From Eledone cirrhosa (taxonomy: Eukaryota), in NCBI GenBank assembly GCA_964016885.1, contig OZ024748.1, positions 14,508,001-14,572,000 of the forward strand: DNA of 64,000 bases. Reading direction: 5' to 3'. Both the position numbers and the translations under genes were made by a program. Every line of letters starts with the position of its first letter. The stretch's first letter is position 1. This document shows positions 6,781-62,450 of the stretch, piece by piece. Under the pieces are notes generated by a model. The model had not been told where the DNA came from. It was given only the letters and a program-made list of their open reading frames with translations, and ran no database searches.

Positions 6781-7073
6781 ATGGCAACCCACTTCACTAC
6801 TGGATAGACGTGCCTGGCCACCAGCATATCACATGTAACAGAAATATATATCATGCAACAAAATATTATGGTAAATTAATCCTGTCTTAATTACCATTAT
6901 TTGATAAATGAATACTCCGTGACTCATAATCACCTACCTGGGATAAACTACTGATGTGAAGGGCTTTGGATCGCTAGGACCTACTTATCCTCAAGAAGTT
7001 ACAACATAACAATTAAGATAAACAACACTCTTCTGCAACTATACACATACACACACATATATATATATATATA

Positions 7074-7306
7074 TAATGTATAAAATCAATACAATATAAT
7101 TACCTCATTACCAGAGGTTTCCCGAATGAGGCGAATACGAAATAAACGACTTCATTCGTTCGTCAGACGAGGCAATATTTATTACCTCGTCTGAGGCAAT
7201 ATTATTGCCTCGTCTGACGAACGAATGAAGTCGTTTATTTAGTATTCGCCTCATTCGGGAAACCTCTGGTAATGAGGTAATTATATTGTATTGATTTTAT
7301 ACATTA
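7074..7306. mobile_element. Fold-back element with head-to-head minimal hammerhead ribozymes (Penelope-like pLTR remnant)
   Basis: About 100-bp near-perfect inverted arms. Plus strand: CTGACGA 7214-7220, stem II cgaatga/tcattcg, GAAAC-C-TCT-G-GTA 7259-7271, stem I caatattattgcctcgt/atgaggtaattatattg. Mirror copy on the minus strand. Follows (TA)n. Confidence 0.8.
7197..7288 (+). ncRNA. Type I hammerhead ribozyme motif, predicted cleavage after GUA at 7271
   Basis: Core boxes CUGACGA and GAAA, GUA triplet, 17-bp stem I with one mismatch. The base of stem II is an A.G mismatch. Confidence 0.7.
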
Positions 7307-7969
7307 AATTTTGCTCTGATATTTACATAGAGCACTCTTCATTTCTATGACCTTTTCTGTTTCCAACTGAAATTTCAATACTTATATATATATATATAGA
7401 CATATATATATTGTACACGCACATCCATAGGCCCTGAACTCCTGAGTTGTTGGGGATGTTTTATTGTCATAAAGCATGACTTGAGCCTTTGAAATGTTTT
7501 GGACCTCATCCACTTCCAGGTCTCAACACAACCAATTTCTTCCAAAGAAAGAAAGAACAAGAGGGTGAGAAAGAAAGATGGAAGAAGAATTGACCCCACT
7601 ACTAGACTGGTACTTTGTTTTTCAACCTCAAAAGGATAATAGGCAAAGTTGAACTCAGAATTTGCACTTGGGTCACTGGCAGCTGGAACAAATACCACAA
7701 TGCATTCTATTCAATGTTTTAACGACTCTGTCAATTTGCCACCTGGAGATATTTTAGCAGAGCATAAAATCTAAAGTGAAATATCTGTTGATTGCTACTT
7801 CAGTAGTTTCTTGTAACTCTAAGTTGATTCCTCCCTCAATATTCTTGCTGTTAGTGCTATAAAATTTCCCATTAGATAATAGCTACATCTCTTCACACAC
7901 ATGCATATATACACGTATACATCTAGTGTATTGCAGTTACCATTTTTACTATTATTATTACCCCCTACA

Positions 7970-8184
7970 GGGGTGGTGAATTGGCAGTATAGAGGATGGT
8001 GAATTGGCAGTATCGGTAGAGGGTCGGACGCCATGCTTTGCAGCACAGTTACGTCCCTTTACGGACTCAGTTCAAATCCCGCCGAGGTTAACTTTGCCTT
8101 TCATCCTTACGGGGTCGATAAAATAAAGTACCAGTAATGCACTGGGTAATTGCTGGCCTTGTGTCAAAAGTAGAAACAATTATT
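7970..8184 (+). mobile_element. Short tRNA-headed SINE (GCCTTTCATCCTTACGGGGTCGATAAAATAAAGTACCAG family)
   Basis: Head ggtgaattggcagtatcggtagag, B box agttcaaatcc, conserved central block and ATT tail. Roughly 25 copies in the window. Confidence 0.85.
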
Positions 8185-8468
8185 ACCCTCTATAGGGGAA
8201 TTTTATTGTTGTAATTTTATTGTTAATTTGTTTTTACTCAGTTTTTATTGTAAACCCCCACTCTCCCTGTTTTTTTGTATTCTCCCTATATGTAGGCCCT
8301 AGTGGCCAATAAAGAAATTACTACTACTACTACTACTAATGCCAACTACTAAACAGTTTCATATAACACCACATTCCTTAATCACAGTATTTATTTATTT
8401 ATTTTTGGGGGTGTGTTGATAGAGTTTTATAATTGAAGGAGTTACTAGACATATTATGTAGTTAATAA

Positions 8469-8656
8469 GGGCGGTGAATTGGCAGTATCGGTAGAGGGTT
8501 GGATTATGCTTTCCAGCATAGTTACGTCCCTTTATGATCTGAGTTCAATTCCCGCCGACGTTAACTTTGCCTTTCATCCTTACGGGGTCGATAAAATAAA
8601 GTACCAGTAATGTACTGGGATAATTGCTGGCCTTGTGCCAAAAAGTAGAAACAATT
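8469..8656 (+). mobile_element. SINE, same family as 7970
   Basis: Near-identical to 7995-8184. Confidence 0.85.
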
Positions 8657-10232
8657 CTGTAGTTGATAAATGTATTTCCACATTCCATACCTAATTAGAC
8701 AATAAGTGATGGCACATGGCCTAATGTTTAGAGTGTTGGACTCACAATTATGAGAGGAAAAATTAAATTTACAACTTGAACCTACACAGCTTTAAATGGC
8801 CTTCTATGATGATGGATCTCATAGAAAGTTTCTCAGGTGATTTAATGATAGGGGAGGAACCAGTGTTGTTTTTAAAACTTATATCGATGTAAGTTTAGCT
8901 GGACTCATATGAAGATGTTTTAATGATAGGGCTGCCAGTCTTATGAAAAGCAACAGAAAATGTAGAACATAATGTGCTATATGGTCCAAAAATGAAACTC
9001 ACAGTCATCAGTCAAAAATCCTAACCATTAGGCTAAACTCCTTCGCCAAGATGATAAGGTCAGTGGTTTAATATCTTAACCAGGTAGTGTATTGTATTCT
9101 TAAGCAAGGCTCTTCACTTCACATTGCTTTTCATGATAAGAGTTAGGGCTCTATCATTAAAACACAAAACCTATGAGATGTAATATCATAGAAAAACTGT
9201 AACCACAACTTGAAACAAGACAAGACAACCAAGAAACTTTCTGTGATGCATCCTTTTAAAAGGCCAGTTAAACCTACATAGGTGTGAGCTGTAAATTTCA
9301 TTTTTTTTTTTTGTCTTTCATTTCAATCAGACAGTATGAATCATGTTTGGAACTTAACTTAAGAATGGTTCTTACATAAAATTAGGATGAAAGGATTTTA
9401 TATAAATATAGACAGTTTAAAATATACAGCTTTGTATCATAGAGCCAAGAGTGGTTTCAAGCAGGTTTTGGTGTCAAACATGTTAGTATTAAGAAAGGTT
9501 CTTACATAAAATTATTATGAAAGGGTTTTAAATAAATATAAACATTTAAAAATATACAGCCTTGCATCATAGAACCAAAAGTGGTTTCAAGCATGTTTTG
9601 GTAACAAAGGGATTCATATTGGAACATTACTGAAACTTAAGTCAAACTTTACAGAACACTTTTCCCACAATCATAACTGGGGAAAATAAATAAATATATG
9701 AAAATATAGGAGCCTTTAACAATACAAGACAATCAATATTTCAAATTTTTGTCTCATTGTTTTGCTTAATTTATTTGGTTCCTGTTTTATTTGAAAGTAA
9801 AGTAGTTATTTTAGTTATTTTAAAAGAAGCAGATAAAAAGTGATTGTACTGAAATTTAATTTATGTGATAATAGTAACCTTATTTTCTTGAAAATACTTC
9901 ATTTCATTATTATTATTATTATTTTGTTGTTGTTACTCTGTAACAGTAAATTAAGTGGTTCACATTAAAAGGTTAAAGAAAATAACAAAAATATTAAACA
10001 GGAATGTAACTTTTCAGAAATATATTTCTAAATATTTCAGTTTAGTGATTTTTTTTTTTAAATTTGAAATGGAAACACATTATTATAATTGGGGCTGCTT
10101 GTAAGAAGGTTATAGGTTCAAATCTAGCTGAAGGTAATTCATTATGTTTTTAGAACAATGCACTTAAGTCTACTTGGTTAACACCTAATTAAAAAGTTGT
10201 TGTCATAACTAATGGCTTTTATTATTATAGAA

Positions 10233-15105: not shown

Positions 15106-15261
15106 CCTGGATGGCGTGGCACCAACATAACTTTACATAGAACGGGGTGGTGTGGATGGGGTGGGGGTGGTGGCGGGACGGGGGTATATATATATATATA
15201 CATAAGGATGGTGTGTATATATATATAGTATAAACAAAGTTTCATACACTTAACATGTACG

Positions 15262-15397
15262 TGCAACCATGGCCACCAGAGTATATTGGAGGAGGCATTG
15301 ATATAATTGTCCATGCCCCCAAAGAGGACCCAATTTAAAAGTGCCTCCTCCAATATACAGTGGTGGCCATAACTGGACCCTGAAACCAATGGTTGCA
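15262..15397. mobile_element. Small inverted-repeat element (MITE-like)
   Basis: atggccaccagagtatattggaggaggca / tgcctcctccaatatacagtggtggccat, with outer tgcaaccat/atggttgca. Confidence 0.55.
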
Positions 15398-15983
15398 TAT
15401 ACAAGTTCAGTGTATGAAACTTTGTTTATACTAAATAAGCCCTCTAGCAACAGATTGGGCACTGTTTTCCTTGATCTTTCATCTATAGATTTCCACACAC
15501 ACACATATATATATATTAAGGTGGAGTGTATCTATGTGATATATATATATGTATACATTTACATAAGTAAATGACTGTTTACAATTGTAGGCTCCTTAAC
15601 CACACTGCCATGTCTGTACCTACCTATATATGATTAGATATTTTTAATTAACTAAGTAGTTACTTAATTAATGTATATAATTGTTTCTACTTTAGGCACA
15701 AGGCCAGCAATTACCCAGTACATTATTGGTACTTTATTTTATCGACCCCGTAAGGATGAAAGGCAAAGTTAACCTTGGCAGGATTTGAACTCAGACCGTA
15801 AAATTAATGTATATAATGTGAAGCAATCCTCTCTGGAAAGAATCAGATATGTTCCAACATGGAGAAGGATAAGCTCCACTAAAAATACCCAAACATGCCA
15901 TGTATCAGGACAGTACCCCTTAGACTCGAACAGGAGTTATGGAGCCATCCCCACCTTATATTTAATAGAAAATAAGTACTCAC

Positions 15984-17447: not shown

Positions 17448-19265
17448 TAACAAATAATTTTCCATAGTGTTTTATAATATAATTCATTTATATTGCTTCT
17501 TTCTTGCAAGGTGTCATTGTGTAAAAGATTATATTCTTAGTTAGTCCTTTTGTAAATGAAAGTTAAATTGATTTGGACTTGGAATGTAAAGAAATGGAAC
17601 TCTATGCCACAAAGTTTGTTATTTCACTCTCTACCGATACTGCCAATCTCTCACCCTAAATGACACAACTTTCAACCTTTTTTGCTACCAGCCAAACCAA
17701 AACCAGTTCTGGTACAATACAACAAAACCACACCTTTTAAAGTGTCCGTATTTAAATTAAAATCTTCCAACAAAATTATATTTATATAAATGCCATATGA
17801 TAAGTTACTATCTTAGAAATGAAATAATTTATCATTTTTGTAAATCACTCAAAATTCCCATCAACCATTTGGATAAATGTCTAAAGTCTGTCTCAAAATC
17901 CAGAGGCTCATCAGGCCAGTGTTTATCCCTGTTTCCATGGCATGAGGTGACTGAGAGCAAAATTCTTCCTCCTGGACAAGACATCAGTTCATTGCTGGGT
18001 TAAACCCCAGATACTGCTGGTGTCCATTTTATTTTCAGCTGAGTATACTGGAGTAATGTGAAACAACATACAGAACCTGGTCCACGATATTATAAGTAGG
18101 TTGTCAGAGTTCAAACTAAACAGGTCAGGACCATATCTTAGTCATACATTCCAATTTGAGCATGGTTTCTATGGCTGAATGTCCTTCATAATACCAGCCA
18201 ATTTGCAGTGTGTCCTTTGTTCGTTTTATCATGTGTGAGGAAGGGTAGCTGCTCATAAAACACTGCTCAAAATGTTTCATCCGGCCCAGAAAGAAAGAAG
18301 GCATTAAAATAATGGTTTCTGATTTAGACACAAGGCCAACAATTTTTTTTTGGGGGGGATGAAGTCAATTAAACTGACCACAGTGCTTACTGGTACATTT
18401 CCATCTCCTTCAAATTGCTGACCTTATGCCTAAATTAGAAACAATTATGATAACAATGATTAAACAATATTTATTTTGCATGTTGTTAGGAAATGATTTT
18501 GTTCAGCTGAGGAAAGTTTTACTATAACATGGAACTTCCTTTTAAAATACATTTCTTATTCGGAAGAAAAAATATATATATTCAAGTTTATTCAAGGCAT
18601 GTTCTTTTCTTTAATTAAAAAATGTATTTTTTTAATGTTTTTTATTGTTTTTAATTTCCATGGCTACAACTAAAATATTGACATATTCACATTGAAATGG
18701 AATGAAATCAATTAAAGTAAATTTAGAAAGTCACCAAGCAACCAATATGTAAAAATAGTCCACAGACAAAATTCCTTTGCTTCATTTAAAGTAAATAAAC
18801 TGGTTGTGTTTCTATAATGAGTCTTGGGTGTATTTTTAAAATACAACCAATGTATCATGTCAAATGATGCCATCTAAATGAAATATGTGTTTCCCAATAA
18901 AATATATATATGCAATTATGGTAAAACTCTAAGAAACCTAACAAATACCATGTTTTCTTCAGACTTTTATTCAAACAAGGTCAAGAATTTATCTAATATA
19001 CAAAAATTTCCTTTTCAAGGCACATTATTTTTTTTGTATCATATTTGGAAACGAGAAATAGGACTTGATCATTTTATTTCATTTGAAAATTCTGCAGAAA
19101 GTCACATCAACATGATATGTTTTGAAAAATGTTTGGCCAACTAAATCTAAATTAGATTCCGTTGGGAAAAAGGTCCAGAAATAAATATGAGAAAGATAGA
19201 GAGTAGGTTTAAAATGTAATGAGTTTCTGATATGTGTAATGGATATTATAACAGATAATATATCT

Positions 19266-19770
19266 ATCATCATTATCATCATCATCTTTACATCAGTTTT
19301 TCCATGAGTTGGACAGGCCATTTTCAGCACAGCATCTCTCCACATGTCACGTTCCTTCATCATCTCTTCTGTGAGATTCAGTGGTTTCAGATCAACTCTC
19401 ACCACTTCCATCCGGGTCTTTCTTGGTATTTCTCTACTGCAGGTTCCTTCTACCAGGATTTGCTGGAACTTCTTCATCCCGTGATCATCATCCATGTGCA
19501 TCACATGTCTGTACCAATGCAGTCTTCTCTGTTGCACACCAGCTTGAATTCCTCATAAATCCCAGTCTTCCTTTGTGTACCTCTACTGCAGCTTCCCTGA
19601 ACTGGGATTTCTTGGCATTTATTCAACCAGTGATCATCATCCAAGCACATCACATGCCTGTATCAACACAGTCTTTTCTCCTGCACACCACTTTAGATTC
19701 CTCTTAAACCCAGTTTCCCCCTCAGTTCCTCCAAGCTCTGTCTTTCTCTCACATTTACATTGTGTAGCAT
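19266..19770 (-). mobile_element. RTE LINE 3' fragment with internal duplication
   Basis: QRRLHWYRHVMHM..VVRVDL..MKERDMWRDAVLK. The segment near 19430-19560 is repeated near 19580-19710. Confidence 0.75.
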
Positions 19771-22809: not shown

Positions 22810-23405
22810 AGGTGGATTAGCAAAATTATTAATGCATCAGAAAAACTGCTTTTGCAGTATTTGTTGCAGCTCTTTTATGTTCTGATTTCAAATCCTACAA
22901 AGATCAACTTTTCCCATTCATTCATCCAGCTGTTGAAAGAATAAAATACCAGGCAAATACTGGGACCAGTATAATCAGCTTTCTCTCTGCCATTAATTTG
23001 CTGGCTTTGTCCTTTAGAATTCATTGCATTTGCAGTATTTGTAGGGCATCAAACAACATACTTTGTGGCATAAAATTTCAGGCCTCTCTCTTCTGAGATC
23101 AAATCTAATGTTATCTTTGCCTTTTATCCTTATGGGGGTTGATAAACTAAAGCAGCAATAATGCACTGCCGTCAATTTAATCGACTTTCCTCTCCCCAAA
23201 AAATTGTTGGCCTTATGCCTAAATCAGAAACCATTATTTTATAAAGGGCGGTGGATTGGCAGTATCGGTAGAGGGTCGGACGCCATGCTTTGCAGCACAA
23301 TTACGAGGTTAACTTTACCTTTCATCCTTACGAGGTCGATAAAATAAAGTACCAGTAATACACTGGGATAATTGCTGGCCTTGTACCAAAAGTAGAAACA
23401 ATTAT
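22810..23405 (+). mobile_element. Three tandem 7970-family SINEs
   Basis: Central block at about 22910, 23120 and 23320. Confidence 0.7.
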
Positions 23406-24234
23406 TTTTATAGTTAATGTTGCTAGAGATACACAGATGATATGTGTGTGTGAGAAAGATATGATGATGTGTGTGTGAGTATATGATGGTGATGTGTGTG
23501 TGAGTGAGATAGATATATGAATGTGGTACTGAAAGTAATACTATTACACAAGATGTAACTTAATGTTAAATTAATTCAATAACGCTCATAATTTTCTCAA
23601 AAACTTGTACAATACCCTACCATTGTTTCTAACCAATTTATAACCATTATTACAAAGATAAATGTAAACAAATGTTGTATAAATTCTGAATTGATTAACT
23701 TTATTATTATTATTATTATTTTTGTTTCTTCCTTCCAAAATTGTTATATGTTGTAGTTGAAATGTTCACATGATACTTGTAACAAAATGTGCAACATTAA
23801 TATTTTAAAACATTGTAATGTCTTTCAGAAAAATTAAATATAAAATATAGTGTGTTTTACAAATGGATGATACATTGTTAACAATATAAATAAAAAAATT
23901 CAACCATTAAAACTATTATTAATACTACCACGAAGATAAAGTGGTTAATTTTTAAAAGTATTTGAAGATTAAATTAAATTTCACAACAAACATTCTATTA
24001 GGTTTGAGATAAATGAAATAATTTTTCTTTTCCCCTTTTATCCAACAGAAAATATAAAAATATCATTGTTTTATTTTACAATTTCAGAATTTGTTTTGGA
24101 ATTGAAAACTCTAAAATACATACAACAAAAGCAATCTCTCTCTCTCTATTCTGTATGTGTGTGTAGGTGTGTATGTATGTGTGTGTATATGTATGTATAT
24201 ATATATAATGGTTTAGATGGAGGTTCAGTGTTTA

Positions 24235-26023: not shown

Positions 26024-26264
26024 ATTCTACTTTAGGAGGGTCATGCTGACAATAAAAACACAAGCACATGTTGGTTTTCACTTCAATTTATTATAAATTT
26101 CCGGTTGGTTGGTTAGTTCCATAACTGGATGGTTGTTTATAATAAATTGAAGTGAAAATCATCAGGTGCTTGTGTTTTTATTGGCAGCATGACCCTCCCA
26201 AAATATAACAATATCTATTTCAACAGACGTTTTCAGATAAGAAATCTTGCAAATTAAATTCAAA

Positions 26265-29135: not shown

Positions 29136-30454
29136 AGAGAGAAAAGAAAACGTGGTCAAAACTGAACAGATGATCATTACTAAGACACTATGTTAATAAT
29201 AATCCTTAAGTTTACCTTAAATGTTGAAATCTACATCGTGTTCTAGCATAAATATTTATTATTTATTTAATTACTTCACTAATCATATGCATGTCATTCA
29301 AATTTGACTGAATCATAGAGGTATTCATACTCTGATGAGGACAAACAAATGTCTGAAAAGTATAAGAATAATCTCATGTTTTTCTATGTACAAAGGAAAC
29401 ATTGAAAACGTTTATACTTCACACATTCATTTTGTCAGCCACAGCCTGAAATTGATAAATAATAGTTATTTATAACATGCTGAGTTTCTGAAATTATGTT
29501 GAATGCTGATTAAACAGACTAAAGTAGGTAGAGGGAGAGAGTGTGTGTGTGTGGTTATTGATTCTTCTTCCTTAATTAGGGAGTGGCTCATGATATTCAG
29601 ACCTTAATTATGGACTACCCCTCCTCCCCGCCTGATATTCAGACCTTAATTAAGGAGTGGTCCCTTTCAACCTTGAAAATACAGAAATAAAAAAATTCAT
29701 AATTTGATTAGTATGCAGTCTATTTAACTCTTATGATACTAAACCACATAAACCCCCCGTTCTATGATACTAAGCTGTTTATTTTGAAGTATTTATATTC
29801 ATACTTATCAAAAACCCTTCCACCATAAGGTTATGCAAGAACCTTTGTTAAGTTATGGTTCAAACTCTAGCTTAATTATGTGAAAGCTAGTTATATAACT
29901 GAACCCCTCCAAATTCTTGATAATTTTCAAAATGATGTGAAAATCATTCACATTTTCTTTCATTATAACAGTGTTTTGCAAACTTTTTCAAGCGGGTAAC
30001 CATTTTTGGTTCAGAATTTTTTTGTGGTACTCCAAAGTTTAAATATACATATATAAATATCTTCATCATCATTTTACGTCCACCTTTCCCTGCTTGCAAG
30101 GGTGGGATGGGTCCTATATATATATACGAGTGAACCAATAGCAAATAAATGTTACACACCATTACTATATATATATATATATAATCAGCAGTTTTACATT
30201 TCCATTTCCATGTTAGCATGGGCTGGAAGGGTCTTTTTGAGGTAATGTTTTATAGCCGGTTGCACTTCCTGACACCAATCTCTTTAATTGCTTCTAGCAT
30301 GCAGGATACAGTTCAGTATATGTATTCAAAATTGGATACACACAGCTGTGTATATATATATATATACATATATTAATTTATAACTCTATAAAGTTAACTG
30401 TTTCTAATACAGTTTATTTCATATACATATATATATACTTATATACATATATAT

Positions 30455-30650
30455 GAAAAGAGTCAAGACCCCCAATGGCTGAGCTATGGCTGTTCCGACA
30501 GCTAGATCCAATCAGTTCAGATCTAGCTGTCAAATTGCCCGGAGCTCAGCTCTCGGAGTCTTGAATCTTTTCATATTACCCACTCTACTACTCCAAGTAT
30601 CGAGTACTCTGGTGCCTTATGGTCCACCTGGTATCTTACCACACCCTTTT
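30455..30650 (+). mobile_element. Diverged copy of the 59437 fold-back family
   Basis: Imperfect inverted arms gaaaagagtcaagacc.../...gagtcttgaatcttttc, and the same tail (ttacccactctactactccaagtatcgagtactctggtgcc..tggtccacctgg). Confidence 0.7.
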
Positions 30651-30666
30651 TGTTATATATATATAC

Positions 30667-30817
30667 ATATTGAAAGGATAACAAGGACGATTGATTACTC
30701 CTTCATTGCATTTATTGGTAGGTGACGCGCGTTTTGCCACTGATCAGCGAAACGCGCGTCACCTACCAATAAATGCAATAAAGGAGTAATCAATCGTCCT
30801 TGTTATCCTTTCAATAT
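30667..30817. mobile_element. Fold-back element retaining the 3' half of a hammerhead (GAAAC-GCGC-GUC)
   Basis: About 65-bp inverted arms. gaaacgcgcgtc at 30749-30760 is mirrored by gacgcgcgttt. The inversion point falls in the stem II/CUGA region (ctgatcagc). Tail to about 30920, then (TA)n. Confidence 0.7.
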
Positions 30818-31140: not shown

Positions 31141-31336
31141 TAGTAACACAACAGTTAGTTCACCATACCGAGAACAATTGTTTCACCTTATGCGGATCTT
31201 CAGCTCAGACTGGCAATGGTTATACGGACAGTAGTAACAGAACAGTAGTTCCATATAACCATTACCAGTCCGAGCTGAAGATCCGCATAAGGTGAAACAA
31301 TTGTTCTCAGTATGGTGAACTATAGTTGTGTTACTA
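31141..31336. mobile_element. Fold-back element with head-to-head hammerhead ribozymes
   Basis: About 85-bp inverted arms. Plus strand: CTGAAGA 31275-31281, short stem II cc/gg, GAAAC-AATT-GTT 31294-31305 with palindromic loop, stem I accagtccgag/ctc(a/g)gtatggt. Confidence 0.75.
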
Positions 31337-39959: not shown

Positions 39960-40182
39960 TACTGCTGCATTGCTTGGGTTCCTTTCTTTAAACATCTTTT
40001 GCTTTTTTCATTGTTTCTTAACCAATAACATTTAGATATTTTCTGAAGAATTTGTGTGTTTGTGTATATATATATATATATATATATAAGCAGAAGGGAT
40101 ATTCAATTTGTTGGTTATTCAACCAATATAAATGTTTATAACTGATTCAGAGCACTCAACAGATTTTCTGGAGTATAATATT

Positions 40183-40544
40183 CAATGATATTAAATAAAT
40201 GGAAACTATATTTATAAAACCATATTTATTCTATTATATATATTTCAAGGGTACCAAAACTTTGGTACGCTTTCATCAGATAAAATACAAAGTTTGTTTT
40301 ATAAATATTGACATAACCAAGAAAAGATATCTTAACGGTTCAAGTTTTTCTTGGATAAGTTTTCTTGACTATCAAAGAAAAACTTGAACCATTAAGGTAT
40401 CTTTTCTTGGTTATGTCAAAATTTATAAAACAAACTTTCTATTTTATCTGATGAAAGCGTACCAAAGTTTTGGTACCCTTGAAATATATATAATAGAATA
40501 AATATGGTTTTATAAATATAGTTTCCATTTATTTAATATCATTG
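40183..40544. mobile_element. Long fold-back element (about 170-bp arms) with head-to-head hammerhead ribozymes
   Basis: Inverted arms caatgatattaaataaatggaaac.../...gtttccatttatttaatatcattg. Plus strand: CTGATGA 40448-40454, stem II aag-c-gtaccaaa/tttggtac-c-ctt, GAAA-T-ATAT-A-TA 40481-40492, stem I tattttat/atagaata. Mirrored on the minus strand. (TA)n on both sides. Confidence 0.8.
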
Positions 40545-40548
40545 TATG

Positions 40549-40585
<37 letters not shown>

Positions 40586-40648
40586 CTTAAGGTTTGTTGG
40601 TTATATATATATATTCAGAATTATACATAAATATATAAATATATTGTT

Positions 40649-40718: not shown

Positions 40719-41585
40719 GCATATGTGTGTGTGTTTGTGATATTAATATACATCATCTTTATTTACTTTGCCTTTCATCCTTACGGGGTCGATAAAATAA
40801 AGTACCAGTAATACACTGGGTAATTGCTGGCCTTGTGCCTAAAGTAGAAACAATTAATATACATTATCAAGCCAAACTTCATAGAATTCAATTATACTTT
40901 ATTTTTATTTTTGTGGTCTAAATAATATCAATGGAATGTTCCACAATCTCTACTATATTATCAATTATTCATTATTCATTAATTTTTTCTCATTGAATTA
41001 GTGTGTAGAAGCTGATATTAATGGCTCTTTTCACATACAAAAGCAGATTAAACCGTTGGATTAAATGTCTGGTGTTTTTATTTCAGCTCTCTGAGTTCAA
41101 GTCCTGCCTACTTCAACTTTGTTATTATTGCATTCTATTTAGAGGTGTAACATAACAATTAATAATAATAAATAAAGTATGCTGATAAGGTGTTACTTGA
41201 AGAGATTAAAGAAGGTATCGAGAGACTATAGAATATAAGTATGTATGTATGATATGGACCTGTAACTCCTAAGGGGGTTAAGAATTCTCAAAGAATGTTT
41301 TGTAACAGTGAGCTTGGATAATATCCATGAGCTTGGCTGGTCACACTTGGGGATCCAGCTGGATCTTTGGAGACGGCTAATTCTGACAGGATGCACACGA
41401 AGGAGTGTTTGAGGACTCTTCCCCCATGACCCTCTCAGGAATAAGTGGGTCAAGAAGAAGAGTTTTAACTGTTTCAGTACTTCTAAAGAAAATCACTTCC
41501 TTCGACTTTCCAATAGATATAAAAATAATCAAGAATTCCGAAAGATTAAATATAACTAACTTTCTTATTATTAAGTTAATGTTTA

Positions 41586-54139: not shown

Positions 54140-55391
54140 GCAGAAGGAAATGAAAGGAAAAATTAATGTGGAATACATGCACAGACTGAGACTTATTCTC
54201 AAATTGAAACTGAATGGATGGAATAAGATGGAAGCTATCAATACACGGGCAGTATCACTCCTTAGATATGGGGCAGGGGTGATCATATGGACAGTGGAAG
54301 AGCTAAATGGTTTAGATCGAAGGACAAGAAAGATATTGACTAGATATTGGGTATTTCAATGAAAGAGCGACACAGGCAGATGATATATACCATGGAAAAG
54401 GGGAGGAAGAGGACTTATAGAGTGCAAAAACAACATTAGAGCAGAAGAATATAACAAGGTGTTATACATAAAAACTTCCACAGAACCACCGTTGCTGGAA
54501 GTAATAAGGTCAAAGATGTGCAAAATAGAAGATTGCAAAGAAAAAACACAGTACAAGCATTTGAAGATGGATGAAACTGAAATAGATGGACAGAAAAAAG
54601 AATGTATGGACAATTCCAGAGAGATGTTGAAAATAGGACAGATAGAGAAAAAGGTGGTTATGGATGGCTAAAAGTGATCTAAAACTGGAAACAGAAGCCT
54701 TAATCTGTGCTGCTCAAGAACAAACACTAAGATCTAACTACATCAAGCATAGTGTAGACCACACAGCTGAAAGTGATAAGTGTATAATTTATAACATGAA
54801 TGGAGAAACTGTATGGCATATTACCAATCAATGCACATCACTAGCTCAGAACAAATATAAGAGATGTTAAGACAACATATACACTTGACAATGCAGAAAA
54901 GTGGTATGAACATAACCCAGAGGGCGTTATCGAAAATGATGATGCAAAAATCCTGTGGGAGTTTGTAATAGAGTGTGACCATGAAATAGAACATAGGAGA
55001 CGAGATATTGTACTAATTGAGAAAGAAAGCAAGCAGTGTTGGATCATAGATATAGCATGTCCAGTTGATAACAAGGTATGCAATAAAGAAGGAAAAATAA
55101 TCAATAGATATTACAGGTTAGCTTGGCAGATTAAGCAGTTGTGGTCACTGAAAATGGTGGTGGTAATACCAATAATAGTTAGAGTCTTGGAAACAGTGAG
55201 TAAAGATCTGGGGAAGAACATTAAACAAATAAGGATTGTAATATGGATGGAAGACTTTAAAAAAAACAGCATTGCTTGGAACAGCTCGAATACTCCAGTA
55301 GGTACTCGAAAAATAAGGGGTGTTACCTCAGTTCACTGGTAGTGAACAGCTTACACTGTAATATATCTCCAGCAATAGAAGCTGAGCGAAG
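54140..55391 (+). mobile_element. R4/Dong-clade non-LTR retrotransposon remnant (RT thumb, zinc knuckle, restriction-like endonuclease) in (TAA)n
   Basis: EY..RLRLILK..LNGWNK..AINT.AVSLLRYGAG..LDRRTRK, GGRGL, LKLETEALICAAQEQ, ETVWHI..C, WYEHNPEGVIEND..KILW..RRRDIVLIEK..IIDIACP, VVIPIIV. Flanked by (AAT)n at 54121-54139 and 55392-55420. Stops and frameshifts present. Confidence 0.9.
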
Positions 55392-57142: not shown

Positions 57143-57490
57143 AGGGCAGTGGGTTGGCAATAACAATAGAACATCAGGCAACATACTTTGCGGCACTTAG
57201 TTATGACCCTTTACATTCTGCTTTCAAATCCTGCCGAGGTTAGCTTTGTCTTTCATCCTCGCGGGGTCGATGAAATAAAGTACAAGTTATATACTGGGGT
57301 CGATTTAATCAACTTCCCCCTCATCCCCAAATTTGTTGACCTTGTGCCTGAATCAGAAACTATTTATTTATTGCTCTTTACTTTCTGAGCTCAAATATTG
57401 CCAAGGTCAACTTTGAGTCAATAAAATAAAGTACCAGTAATGCACCGGGATAATTGCTGGCCTTGTGCCAAAAAGTAGAAACAATTATCG
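57143..57490 (+). mobile_element. Two tandem 7970-family SINEs
   Basis: Central block at about 57250 and 57420. Confidence 0.7.
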
Positions 57491-57702: not shown

Positions 57703-58774
57703 GTAGGAGGTGAGTTTTATTGTAGTACAATAAAGCAATGCAGATATCGGATAAGAAGCACTCTACAGTTTGTAGGACTGGAGTATGTTGATTTAAAACT
57801 GCACTATTCACAAGTGTTTTTTAACCTTCATATCATGTCTTCCTATTTTATCTGATGAAAACACAAATGTTATTGCATGATGATATTTGTTTTTGAAATA
57901 CGCATAATAAAATACATGGAACTCTTTTAACCATCTTTTGATCTTATATATATATATATATATACACATATATATATATATATATATATAATATGCACAT
58001 AACCTATTTGCTATGTGTCTGTAAATGACAAAACCTATACACACACACATACATATATGTATTGTATGTATGCATATGTATTATATGTATGTATGCATAT
58101 GTATGCCACATTTACAATGTGTCTGTAAATGACAAAAGAAATATATATATATATATATGTATATGTGTGTGTGTATGTATATATAACAATGAATATTATT
58201 GTTTACTTGTCTTCTTTCTAAAACATTTTCATGCTACAACACTGCTGAAAATTTCTTCATGAAAATTGAAATTAATTCAATTCAGTCATGTTTAGAGAAG
58301 GCAGAATACATCAGTTGATATTAAAATGCATTAAATGAATTTTACCTGCTGGTGCAAGTTTAGAAAGAAGGCAGTAGTTGAAACCAGCTCTGATTAGGTG
58401 TCTGTTATTGATGATACCCCCCACTGTGTCAATCTGACACAAATCTAAATGTTAATGAGTGCTAATGAGACTATTTTTCTTGTTTTTGAAATAACAAATG
58501 AAATAATTATTAAAATGATTACATTGCAATTTTTTCAACTAAAATAAAATTTCAAGATCAGCATAAACATCTTTAAAAAATCATTTCTTTTAGAATTGTC
58601 TTCATGATTACTTTATCACTTAACCTATTTTCTTACACAGTTATTTGAAAATTAGATTCCTCATTATTATTCTCCTGATCATGTGACCATCAATAATATT
58701 CGAAAGCTGTGAATAAATTTTACATGTTAAAATTATTAAAATGTTTCAAAGAAGGACATGAAATATTTTATACG

Positions 58775-58925: not shown

Positions 58926-59436
58926 GTAATGCTGTTACTTCAAATTTCTCCCCTATATTAAATTTCTGATTTAGGCATATCACCAATGAATACAAAAAAA
59001 ACTAGCACAGAAAAAAATGAAAGAATGCAACTGGCACCAGTATTACATCACCAGCAACAAATGAAGTGTGACAAGCAGATAATAATAATAAATAAACGAT
59101 GATGACGACAGTGATGATGATGATGATAAGGATTTCTTTTATAATAATAAAAAAAAAAGATGTAAACATTGTATTTCTTTCTTGGTGCTATACAAATAGA
59201 GAGTCTGGTTGTCAAACTTTTCAGTGTTCAGACAGGCTAGGATATTTTTTTATAATTTATATAAAAGACATAGACATTAGAAATAAAACAAAAAATAGAA
59301 TTACTACTTAAAGTATTTAAGATGACAATATTATAAAAATGTCACCTGAAGTGACGGATGATAAGAAAGAAAGCTGTATATATGTGTATATGTGTCTCTC
59401 TCCCTCTGTGTGTGCTTGTCCATATATATATATACA

Positions 59437-59640
59437 TAGGAACGAGTAGGACCACGACGGCTGAGCTCAAGCCGTTTCGACGGCTAATTCTGGACAGAAT
59501 TAGCCGTCCAGAATTAGCCATCGAAACGGCTTGAGCTCAGCCGTCGGGGTCCTACTCGTTCCTATTACCCACTCTACTACCCTAAGTATTGAGTACTTTG
59601 GTGCGTTATGGTCCACCTGGTTCCTTACCACATTTCCTTC
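59437..59640 (+). mobile_element. Fold-back element with hammerhead 3' half (GAAAC-GGCT..AGCC-GUC) plus unpaired tail
   Basis: Inverted arms 59437-59564, gaaac 59523-59527, gtc 59543-59545. Tail ttacccactctactac...gagtactttggtgcg..tggtccacctggttccttaccaca. In (TA)n. Confidence 0.7.
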
Positions 59641-60448: not shown

Positions 60449-60784
60449 TGGAGGCACATGGCTTAGTGGTTAGAGCATTGGACTTGCAATCGAAAGGTTG
60501 TGAGTTCAATTCTCAGACCGGGTGATGTGTTGTTTCCTTGAGCAAGACACTTTATTTCACATTGCTCCAGTTTACTCAGCTGTAGAAATGAGATGAGAGG
60601 GACTGGGGTCCCTATCATTCCACTGCAAAGTGGTCGTGGAGGTGCCACGGCAAAAAAGCACCCAGCACTCACTGTAAATGAGGTTGGTGTTAGGAAGGGC
60701 ATCCAGCTGTAGAAATCAAGCCAGAATCAGCTCCCGTCCCACCCTTGCAAGCAGGGAAAGGTGGACGTAAAAGGAGATGATGAT
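60449..60784 (+). mobile_element. Full-length tRNA-headed SINE with CORE-like segment and RTE-type 3' tail
   Basis: A box tggcttagtggtt, B box gagttcaattc, CORE-like gtttccttgagcaagacacttt. Tail cccgtcccacccttgcaagcagggaaaggtggacgt plus GAT repeats, similar to the LINE end at 6722-6780. Confidence 0.85.
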
Positions 60785-61454: not shown

Positions 61455-61918
61455 GGGGTGATAGGCAGTATCGGTAGAGGGTCGGACGCCATGCTTTGAT
61501 GCATAGAGTTACGACCCTTGCCATTCTGAATTCAAATCCTGCCGAGGTTAACTTTGCCTTTCATCCTTACGGGGTCGATAAAATAAAGTACCAGTAATAC
61601 ACTGGCATAATTGCTGGCCTTGTGCCAGAATTAGAAACAGTTATTATCCTCATCATCATTTTTATTATCATTAATATTAATAGTATTTTTATTTATTGTT
61701 ATTATTATTATTAGTAGTAATATCATTATTATTGTCTGGGAGTATCGGTAAGGGTTGGACGCCATGCTTTGAAGCATAGAGTTACCTCCCTTTATGATCT
61801 GAGTTCAAATCCCGCCGAGGTTAACTTTGCCTTTCATCCTTACGGGGTCTATAAAATAAAGTACCAGTAATGCACTGGAATAATTGCTGGCCTTGTGCCA
61901 AAAATAGAAACAATTATT
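61455..61918 (+). mobile_element. Two 7970-family SINEs separated by (ATT)-rich DNA
   Basis: Copies at 61455-61645 and 61738-61918 are near-identical to 8469-8656. Confidence 0.85.
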
Positions 61919-62450
61919 GTCTAGAAAGAGAGACACAGAGAGCTTTTTCTGTTTGACTTTCAGGAGGTATTTTTATGTTCACTTTGTGTGGCTAAACTTT
62001 TAGCAAAAGAAATCAGCAAAGAGGGGGATAAATTCAATAGCTTACACTACACAAACTTTATATATTTTAGATATTTTCTATTCTATCTCTCTGGTCTTGT
62101 TTACAAAGAAAGAAGTAATAAATAGAAAAACTAATATAGATTTTTTTACATATGGTTTTTTGGTTTATTTATATTTTTATACTTTTTCAATTGAAATGGA
62201 AGGAAGCAAGCTGGGCAAAAATTGTTATCTGAACAATGCTCAATGGAACAGACACTTTTCATTCCAATTGCTGCTATCATATTGCAAGGGAATATATATA
62301 TATATTTATATTGCATATGTTGTATACGTTAGAGGATATATATATATATACTTTATTTATAGTATATATATATCCTCTAACATATACAACATATGCAATA
62401 TAAATATATATATATTCCCTTGCAATATATATATATATAAGTATGTATAC

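Follow-up and report, generated by a model that had tools for sequence, protein, structure and literature searches.

How did a long palindrome with a hammerhead ribozyme motif in each arm come to lie in the genome of Eledone cirrhosa, and would the ribozyme act where it now lies? The window, which is the whole 64,000-nucleotide stretch analyzed here (assembly GCA_964016885.1, contig OZ024748.1), is non-coding animal DNA, rich in AT and in microsatellites, and contains a tRNA-like SINE. Its repeats presumably resemble those of an octopus genome. A dispersed SINE-like family, which we take to resemble octopus SINEs, was found at 8018-8188, 8491-8661, 23239-23409, 40762-40859, 57170-57340, 61478-61648, 61751-61921 and other positions. 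A tRNA-like head scores at 60459-60516, within a 209-bp repeat that is also present at 1655-1863.

Anatomy of the palindrome and its hammerhead motifs

The palindrome was located at 40183-40544 by palindrome search and arm comparison. It consists of two 175-bp arms, with 5 mismatches between them, and a 12-nt non-palindromic spacer. An earlier note made from the sequence had correctly reported its existence and its length of 362 bp, and had placed its start at 40100, a point that takes in most of an unpaired extension at 40089-40182. The left arm (40183-40357, minus strand) reads outward from the center and is a copy of the size of a pLTR, the terminal repeat of Penelope-like elements (PLEs). 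It is continued on the same strand by the extension, a one-sided 94-nt 3' tail of the element that is carried by the left copy only, ends in a (TA)n microsatellite at 40065-40088 and was found as family sequence in three of the four public sequencing runs compared. The right arm (40370-40544, plus strand) is an inverted copy lacking the tail and stops 4 nt from an interrupted (TA)n microsatellite at 40549-40586; in other family copies from the public runs the equivalent point also falls in TA runs. The two microsatellites, identified from the sequence and, on the left, from the measured distance to the palindrome, are the flanks of the probable target site, and since both are TA repeats a target-site duplication is unreadable within (TA)n. 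The junction spacer (40358-40369) resembles a partial repeat of the 5' start of the arms. Six-frame translation of 40080-40560 gave no reading frame.

All 5 arm mismatches lie within the inner 70 of the 175 nt, and the outer 105 nt, hammerhead core included, are identical (post hoc p about 0.01). This clustering near the center is not predicted by plain neutral decay; it could have arisen by chance, by arm-to-arm gene conversion or by additional mutations around the tip of the hairpin. The arm divergence of 5/175 suggests that the insertion may be a few million years old, assuming that the arms were first identical and that the calibration given in excerpts of PMC13282606 (distance 0.09 for about 25 million years) is applicable.

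A hammerhead motif was identified in each arm by motif scan, descriptor and arm comparison, and in the right arm also by folding. Both motifs point outward from the palindrome center (cores at 40448 on the plus strand and 40279 on the minus strand). In the right motif (40440-40500, plus strand) stem I is formed by 40440-40447 with 40493-40500 (8 possible pairs), and encloses the core CUGAUGA at 40448-40454, stem II at 40455-40480, GAAA at 40481-40484, the UAUAUA of stem III at 40485-40490 and UA at 40491-40492. The cleavage triplet is AUA (40490-40492) and cleavage is predicted 3' of 40492. The left motif (40227-40287, minus strand) is made up of stem I (40287-40280 with 40234-40227), core (40279-40273), stem II (40272-40247), GAAA (40246-40243) and the palindromic stem III (40242-40237), with cleavage predicted 3' of 40235. 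The core elements CUGANGA, GAAA and UH are present in type I order in both arms.

The positions that the earlier note had assigned to the right-hand CUGAUGA, stem II, stem III and cleavage triplet were all correct. The stem II that it described as 11-12 bp is rightly located; in detail it has 11 positions, of which 10 are paired, with a C x C mismatch at pair 4 and a 4-nt loop. Stem I has 8 pairs available, and stem III of both arms is the self-complementary UAUAUA with 2 pairs. The description of this stem as AU-only holds for both arms here and does not extend to the family, in which a G variant is common and the loop of a solo copy (core at 57852) is different. The reading of the motif as type I with a weak palindromic stem III, of a kind reported to need a partner, agrees with excerpts of Cervera and De la Pena (2014; PMC4209133).

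A strict type I descriptor matched three sites in the window, namely both arms and the solo copy at 57852, compared with a mean of 0.02 and a maximum of 1 in 100 dinucleotide-preserving block shuffles. The 70-nt motif gave a folding z-score of -4.3. Rfam hammerhead models produced no match over the window at gathering score, nor over 40050-40600 at E <= 10; at the palindrome center the only Rfam hits were generic hairpin (microRNA) models, all below gathering score. In the minimum-energy fold prediction of the right-arm copy stem I was placed in a shifted register. Stem II had a predicted probability of 0.73-1.0 and the active monomer fold a Boltzmann share of 2e-7 (right) and 4e-5 (left). A hammerhead-like stretch at 29320-29375 (core at 29332, 5-bp stem II) failed both full descriptors and was rejected; it is possibly a decayed copy of another family.

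The repeat family in public sequencing runs

Four public sequencing runs (X1, X13, X6 and X5) were compared with 40090-40400 (311 bases) at 80% likeness. Matches were obtained for 8384 of 16.3 million contigs in X1, from the best-matching organism, and for 28561 of 12.5 million RAD-seq records in X13, from the same organism. In runs from two other organisms the matching contigs numbered 53 (X6) and 6 (X5), the latter being mostly short AT-rich pieces that were excluded from evidence. X1 is possibly the source sample of the window and is not independent support for the palindrome locus. Contig depth, which is no measure of copy number, peaked over the hammerhead region and dropped steeply toward the center, with the spacer near single-copy (at 40361, 17.5 in X1 and 1 read in X13); edge effects contribute to the fall. 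The contrast in depth between the hammerhead region and the spacer indicates a dispersed high-copy family. Scans with patterns of the family motif returned no matches in viral contigs and none in two metagenome scans.

Loose ends of the family at 40178-40194 continue into TA repeats, as the right arm does. Among the joints listed, strand changed in 9 of 14, at scattered points from 40161 to 40357, and three of the listed strand switches fell exactly at 40357, the inner end of the left arm of the palindrome and the equivalent of the inner end of the right one. This agreement suggests that the copied unit has a fixed 5' boundary. The single orientable strand-switch joint among those listed was head-to-head. 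A return by the length of a whole unit was seen in none of the 14 listed joints, the two backward joints being 30 and 52 nt.

Two explanations that make no use of a retroelement are affected by these data. Fold-back chimeras occur in sequencing, and the palindrome could be an assembly or library artefact of a single folded-back copy; among the contigs listed, none spans the whole of 40090-40400. It is nonetheless extremely unlikely to be such an artefact. There are 5 differences between the arms, and both the left (at 40330) and the right (at 40374) depart from the family majority at one site or more. X1 contigs, possibly from the source sample, cover the spacer, one of them with 31 letters past 40361, and arms have diverged in other palindromes of the window as well.

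The second is that a DNA transposon of foldback or MITE type inserted here and that its long terminal inverted repeats contain a hammerhead-like motif by chance. The inverted repeats are indeed long and inserted in TA, a common DNA-transposon target, but this explanation is largely refuted by the variable junctions and is barely credible. The termini are asymmetric, with a tail on one side only, arm length varies by copy and the switch points are scattered over the interval given above. The motif, moreover, passes a descriptor that shuffled sequences rarely pass and recurs in the same orientation in unrelated palindromes.

The solo related hammerhead (57844-57913, plus strand) has the same stem I 5' strand and core as the palindrome copy, a different stem II that is longer (16 positions compared with 11) and a different loop 3. 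Comparison of the two copies gave 6 double-sided stem II changes in 10 paired positions, with pairing kept. Two more paired versions of stem II were read by eye in loose-end consensus sequences of 30 letters at most: one has a U-A to C-G exchange, and the other is a different hairpin, again with C x C fourth from the GAAA side. Covariation in stem II, which the earlier note had named as a check, was in this way seen at family level. Pair 4 of stem II is mismatched in both genomic copies, as C x C in the palindrome copy (stem II at 40455-40480) and as C x U in the solo copy (57859-57894), with the C on the 5' side. Apparently present in a third subfamily too, the mismatch with a 5' C is possibly a conserved structural feature.

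Further variation was taken from per-site variant tables, which carry no linkage between positions. The common stem I variants were G-U to A-U (70% of X1 depth) and A-U to G-U. The G variant of loop 3 accounted for 16% of X1 contig depth and 36-69% of X13 reads, and G at position 10.1 for 37% of X1 depth and 22-29% of X13 reads. Among the 40 of 85 variant rows listed, none of the 10 inside the motif hit any of the 13 core positions, an observation of little weight. Across the family the hammerhead fold is maintained, an indication of selection in the source elements that has no bearing on the palindrome locus itself.

Probable Penelope-like insertions in the window

Fourteen long palindromes of the window were examined by self-comparison; one pure microsatellite and one palindrome inside simple repeats were left out, and one overlapping palindrome was merged with its neighbor. 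The layout of the locus, with one end at most 5 nt from (TA)n and an extension of 60-100 nt to (TA)n at the other, was found in 8 of the 14. Random placement gave a mean of 0.21 and a maximum of 3 in 3000 trials, and placement with one end anchored on a TA run a mean of 1.26 and a maximum of 6 in 3000; the distance bounds used were set post hoc, after the data had been seen. Intact, outward-pointing hammerhead cores were present in both arms of three of the eight (7071-7309, 31141-31336 and 40183-40544), which belong to unrelated families. The palindrome at 7071-7309 lies in (TA)n and has a 73-nt tail to about 7382; its hammerheads are at 7214 (plus strand) and 7166 (minus strand), and the motif is predicted to fold straight into a three-way junction. 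At 31141-31336 the tail is 71 nt, on the left, and the hammerheads at 31275 (plus strand) and 31203 (minus strand) have a short stem II and the palindromic stem III CAATTG. The other five, each with a one-sided 60-100-nt tail and one end at (TA)n, are at 15222-15437, 26025-26208, 30451-30576, 30667-30817 and 59436-59565, and no intact hammerhead core was found in them by motif scan. The tails of the palindromes starting at 30451 and 59436 are alike and look like one family.

Excerpts of Cervera and De la Pena (2014; PMC4209133) describe dimer-type hammerheads in the pLTRs of metazoan PLEs, with variants that have a small palindromic helix III. Hammerhead pairs on opposite strands 100-700 bp apart are reported there, as are dimeric constructs that cleave at a low level. 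Hammerheads are also located in PLE terminal repeats in the available text of PMC6431247. As far as these passages of PMC4209133 go, the present motif is like the PLE hammerheads in its type I topology, its intact CUGANGA/GAAA/UH core, its long helix II and a palindromic helix III that needs a partner, and the family is like theirs in its thousands of dispersed copies, variable subfamilies and opposite-strand pairs 100-700 bp apart. Two features given for the PLE motif in the same text, a helix II longer than canonical and a palindromic 15.2-16.2/loop 3, are both found in the palindrome copy. It differs from the PLE hammerheads described there in its helix I of 8 bp and in a helix II of 11 positions with C x pyrimidine at pair 4. 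Also unlike them, the palindrome copy has A-U in place of the G10.1-C11.1 pair and no extra base after position 9 (9/10.1), and the solo copy likewise; this counts against a PLE origin.

The insertion itself can be set beside published ones. Passages of Arkhipova et al. (2013; PMC3846280) report pLTRs of 181-218 bp inverted head-to-head, only one of the two carrying a tail (31 bp), and propose self-priming. Those of Craig et al. (2021; PMC8557442) report an inverted 5'-truncated copy, a 30-40-bp tail, pLTR hammerheads and a (TA)n bias, and the same PLE insertion marks are listed in the available part of PMC8969392. Judged by these excerpts of PMC3846280 and PMC8557442, the locus is like endonuclease-bearing PLE insertions in its head-to-head pLTR-sized copies, its tail on one copy, its microsatellite target and its lack of a readable target duplication; variable 5' truncation is seen as well. 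It is unlike them in comprising the terminal repeat only and in the length of its tail, 94 nt here and 60-100 nt over the 8 insertions of the window (measured to the first TA run) compared with 30-40 bp, a difference that also speaks against a PLE origin.

Taken together, the outward-facing 175-bp copies, the one-sided 94-nt tail, the TA at both ends, the dispersed high-copy family and the variable strand-switch points make a single PLE insertion the best explanation. The locus is very probably a hammerhead-bearing pLTR of a high-copy PLE family, or of a short non-autonomous derivative mobilized by such a family, inserted as a head-to-head inverted pair in (TA)n. By analogy, its behavior would be that of a PLE pLTR hammerhead carried by a PLE-type insertion. 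We infer a link to an autonomous PLE from architecture alone. The window yielded no coding sequence for a reverse transcriptase or a GIY-YIG endonuclease: 98 stop-free frames, comprising 37 of the 79 frames of at least 90 aa (outside simple repeats, picked by eye) and 61 shorter, composition-filtered ones, gave no Pfam hit at the curated cut-off, and a motif scan gave nothing convincing. The viral and metagenome collections gave no match that would supply the link to reverse transcriptase or GIY-YIG. Two stop-free frames, at 54845-55342 (plus strand) and 19079-19552 (minus strand), had no Pfam match; their translations presumably resemble C-terminal parts of non-LTR retrotransposon proteins.

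On the published model of PLE insertion, a GIY-YIG endonuclease encoded by the element would open a TA repeat, and the reverse transcriptase would then copy the end of the element, that is the terminal repeat with its tail. Self-priming or template switching would yield the mirror, tail-less copy, and the palindrome would be built at insertion. The spacer looks like a brief second copy of the beginning (5') of the arms, as would be left by an abortive restart.

A neighboring class of elements, the non-LTR retrozymes, was also considered: a short element made of tandem repeats, bearing a type I hammerhead and copied through circular RNA, could have inserted as an inverted pair. In the available text of PMC7229834 and of 10.64898/2026.07.22.740005 these are short, low-GC, non-coding repeats that carry a type I hammerhead in which helix III is weak and palindromic, and in these respects the family is like them; they are reported to derive from PLE pLTRs. 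With its size of about 180-270 nt, its low GC and its type I hammerhead, the family agrees with the excerpts of PMC7229834, and the three listed joints exactly at 40357 would suit a unit with a fixed 5' boundary. The report of retrozymes as PLE derivatives in the accessible part of 10.64898/2026.07.22.740005 makes this explanation overlap with that of a PLE insertion. The locus, however, is unlike retrozymes in having inverted copies with a one-sided tail and no head-to-tail tandem array, and a whole-unit return is missing from the 14 listed joints; a tail on one side only and a head-to-head junction characterize PLE insertions. A retrozyme monomer is considered improbable here.

In cephalopods, recently active Penelope-like families are described for Octopus vulgaris in excerpts of PMC13282606, in which hammerheads are not mentioned, and 235 Rfam hammerhead hits were counted in giant squid according to the available text of PMC6962438. 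A published account of the repeat family of this palindrome was not found; the supplements of PMC4209133 and PMC8557442, or repeat databases, may contain one.

Predicted activity and meaning of the locus

The earlier note had proposed that the partner copy lies on the opposite strand and that activity would need two separate transcripts. The copies do lie on opposite strands. The opposite arm is not upheld as a functional partner, as the layout is explained by the PLE mode of insertion and as both the read-through fold and the dimer energies tell against it. The plus-strand read-through RNA of 40090-40560 was predicted to form one hairpin of -267 kcal/mol, with a probability of 0 for every hammerhead stem. 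In single-arm RNA stem II was predicted to form and the active junction was not, and on these predictions a one-arm RNA would cleave poorly or not at all.

Energies of two-molecule complexes were calculated as nearest-neighbor estimates that include neither tertiary contacts nor proteins. The double hammerhead was estimated at -28.6 (right/right), -28.2 (left/left) and -28.4 kcal/mol (left/right), the corresponding sums for two free monomers at -32.0, -24.4 and -28.2 kcal/mol, and alternative dimers at -39.8, -32.2 and -36.0 kcal/mol. The 8-nt AU duplex alone contributed -3.2 kcal/mol, with a computed millimolar Kd for the stem III duplex. By these models, dimerization in trans through the AU-only helix is marginal in energy.

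A working two-transcript ribozyme would require a bidirectional promoter near the center, from which divergent RNAs arise, pair through UAUAUA and cleave in trans. The cores are intact in both arms, the distal 105 nt are identical between them, bidirectional promoter motifs are proposed for pLTRs in passages of PMC3846280, and the double hammerhead of the left copy (-28.2) lies below two free monomers (-24.4). The gain for the left/right heterodimer, on the other hand, is near nil (-28.4 vs -28.2), alternative dimers are 4-11 kcal/mol more stable, the stem III duplex has a millimolar Kd and both motifs are buried in read-through RNA. In vitro cleavage was weak even for tandem PLE hammerheads, according to the excerpts of PMC4209133. 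The same layout recurs in unrelated families of the window, and function is therefore not needed as an explanation. Trans activity from the palindrome locus is unlikely on the modeled energies, and the complete two-transcript scheme is very hard to credit.

Under the preferred explanation of a PLE insertion, the hammerhead would be selected in the source element, where the palindromic stem III would find its partner in a same-strand tandem pLTR and the RNA of the element would be processed by dimer cleavage. The hammerhead at the palindrome locus would then be a passenger and the palindrome a by-product of insertion.

One extension of this explanation concerns the family. It may be a distinct structural subtype of PLE hammerhead on a short non-autonomous element, with the pair-4 mismatch of its long stem II retained in versions whose stem sequences are otherwise unrelated, the 5' boundary fixed at 40357 and a tail of 60-100 nt. 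The C x pyrimidine mismatch would in that case possibly replace the usual loop-loop interaction as a tertiary contact. This subtype is rather doubtful at present.

As a single locus the palindrome matters little, being one of thousands of repeat-family stumps with a layout that is already published. The 8 insertions in 64 kb, from several unrelated families, are a record of PLE junctions and of tails longer than reported, and could test the self-priming model for the origin of inverted copies, which is left open in the accessible literature. The stem II mismatch that recurs at pair 4 offers a testable hint on how such weak hammerheads fold. If the family is indeed a distinct subtype, the host RNA pool would receive from such insertions, at thousands of loci, long hairpin RNAs or hammerhead RNAs able to pair in trans.
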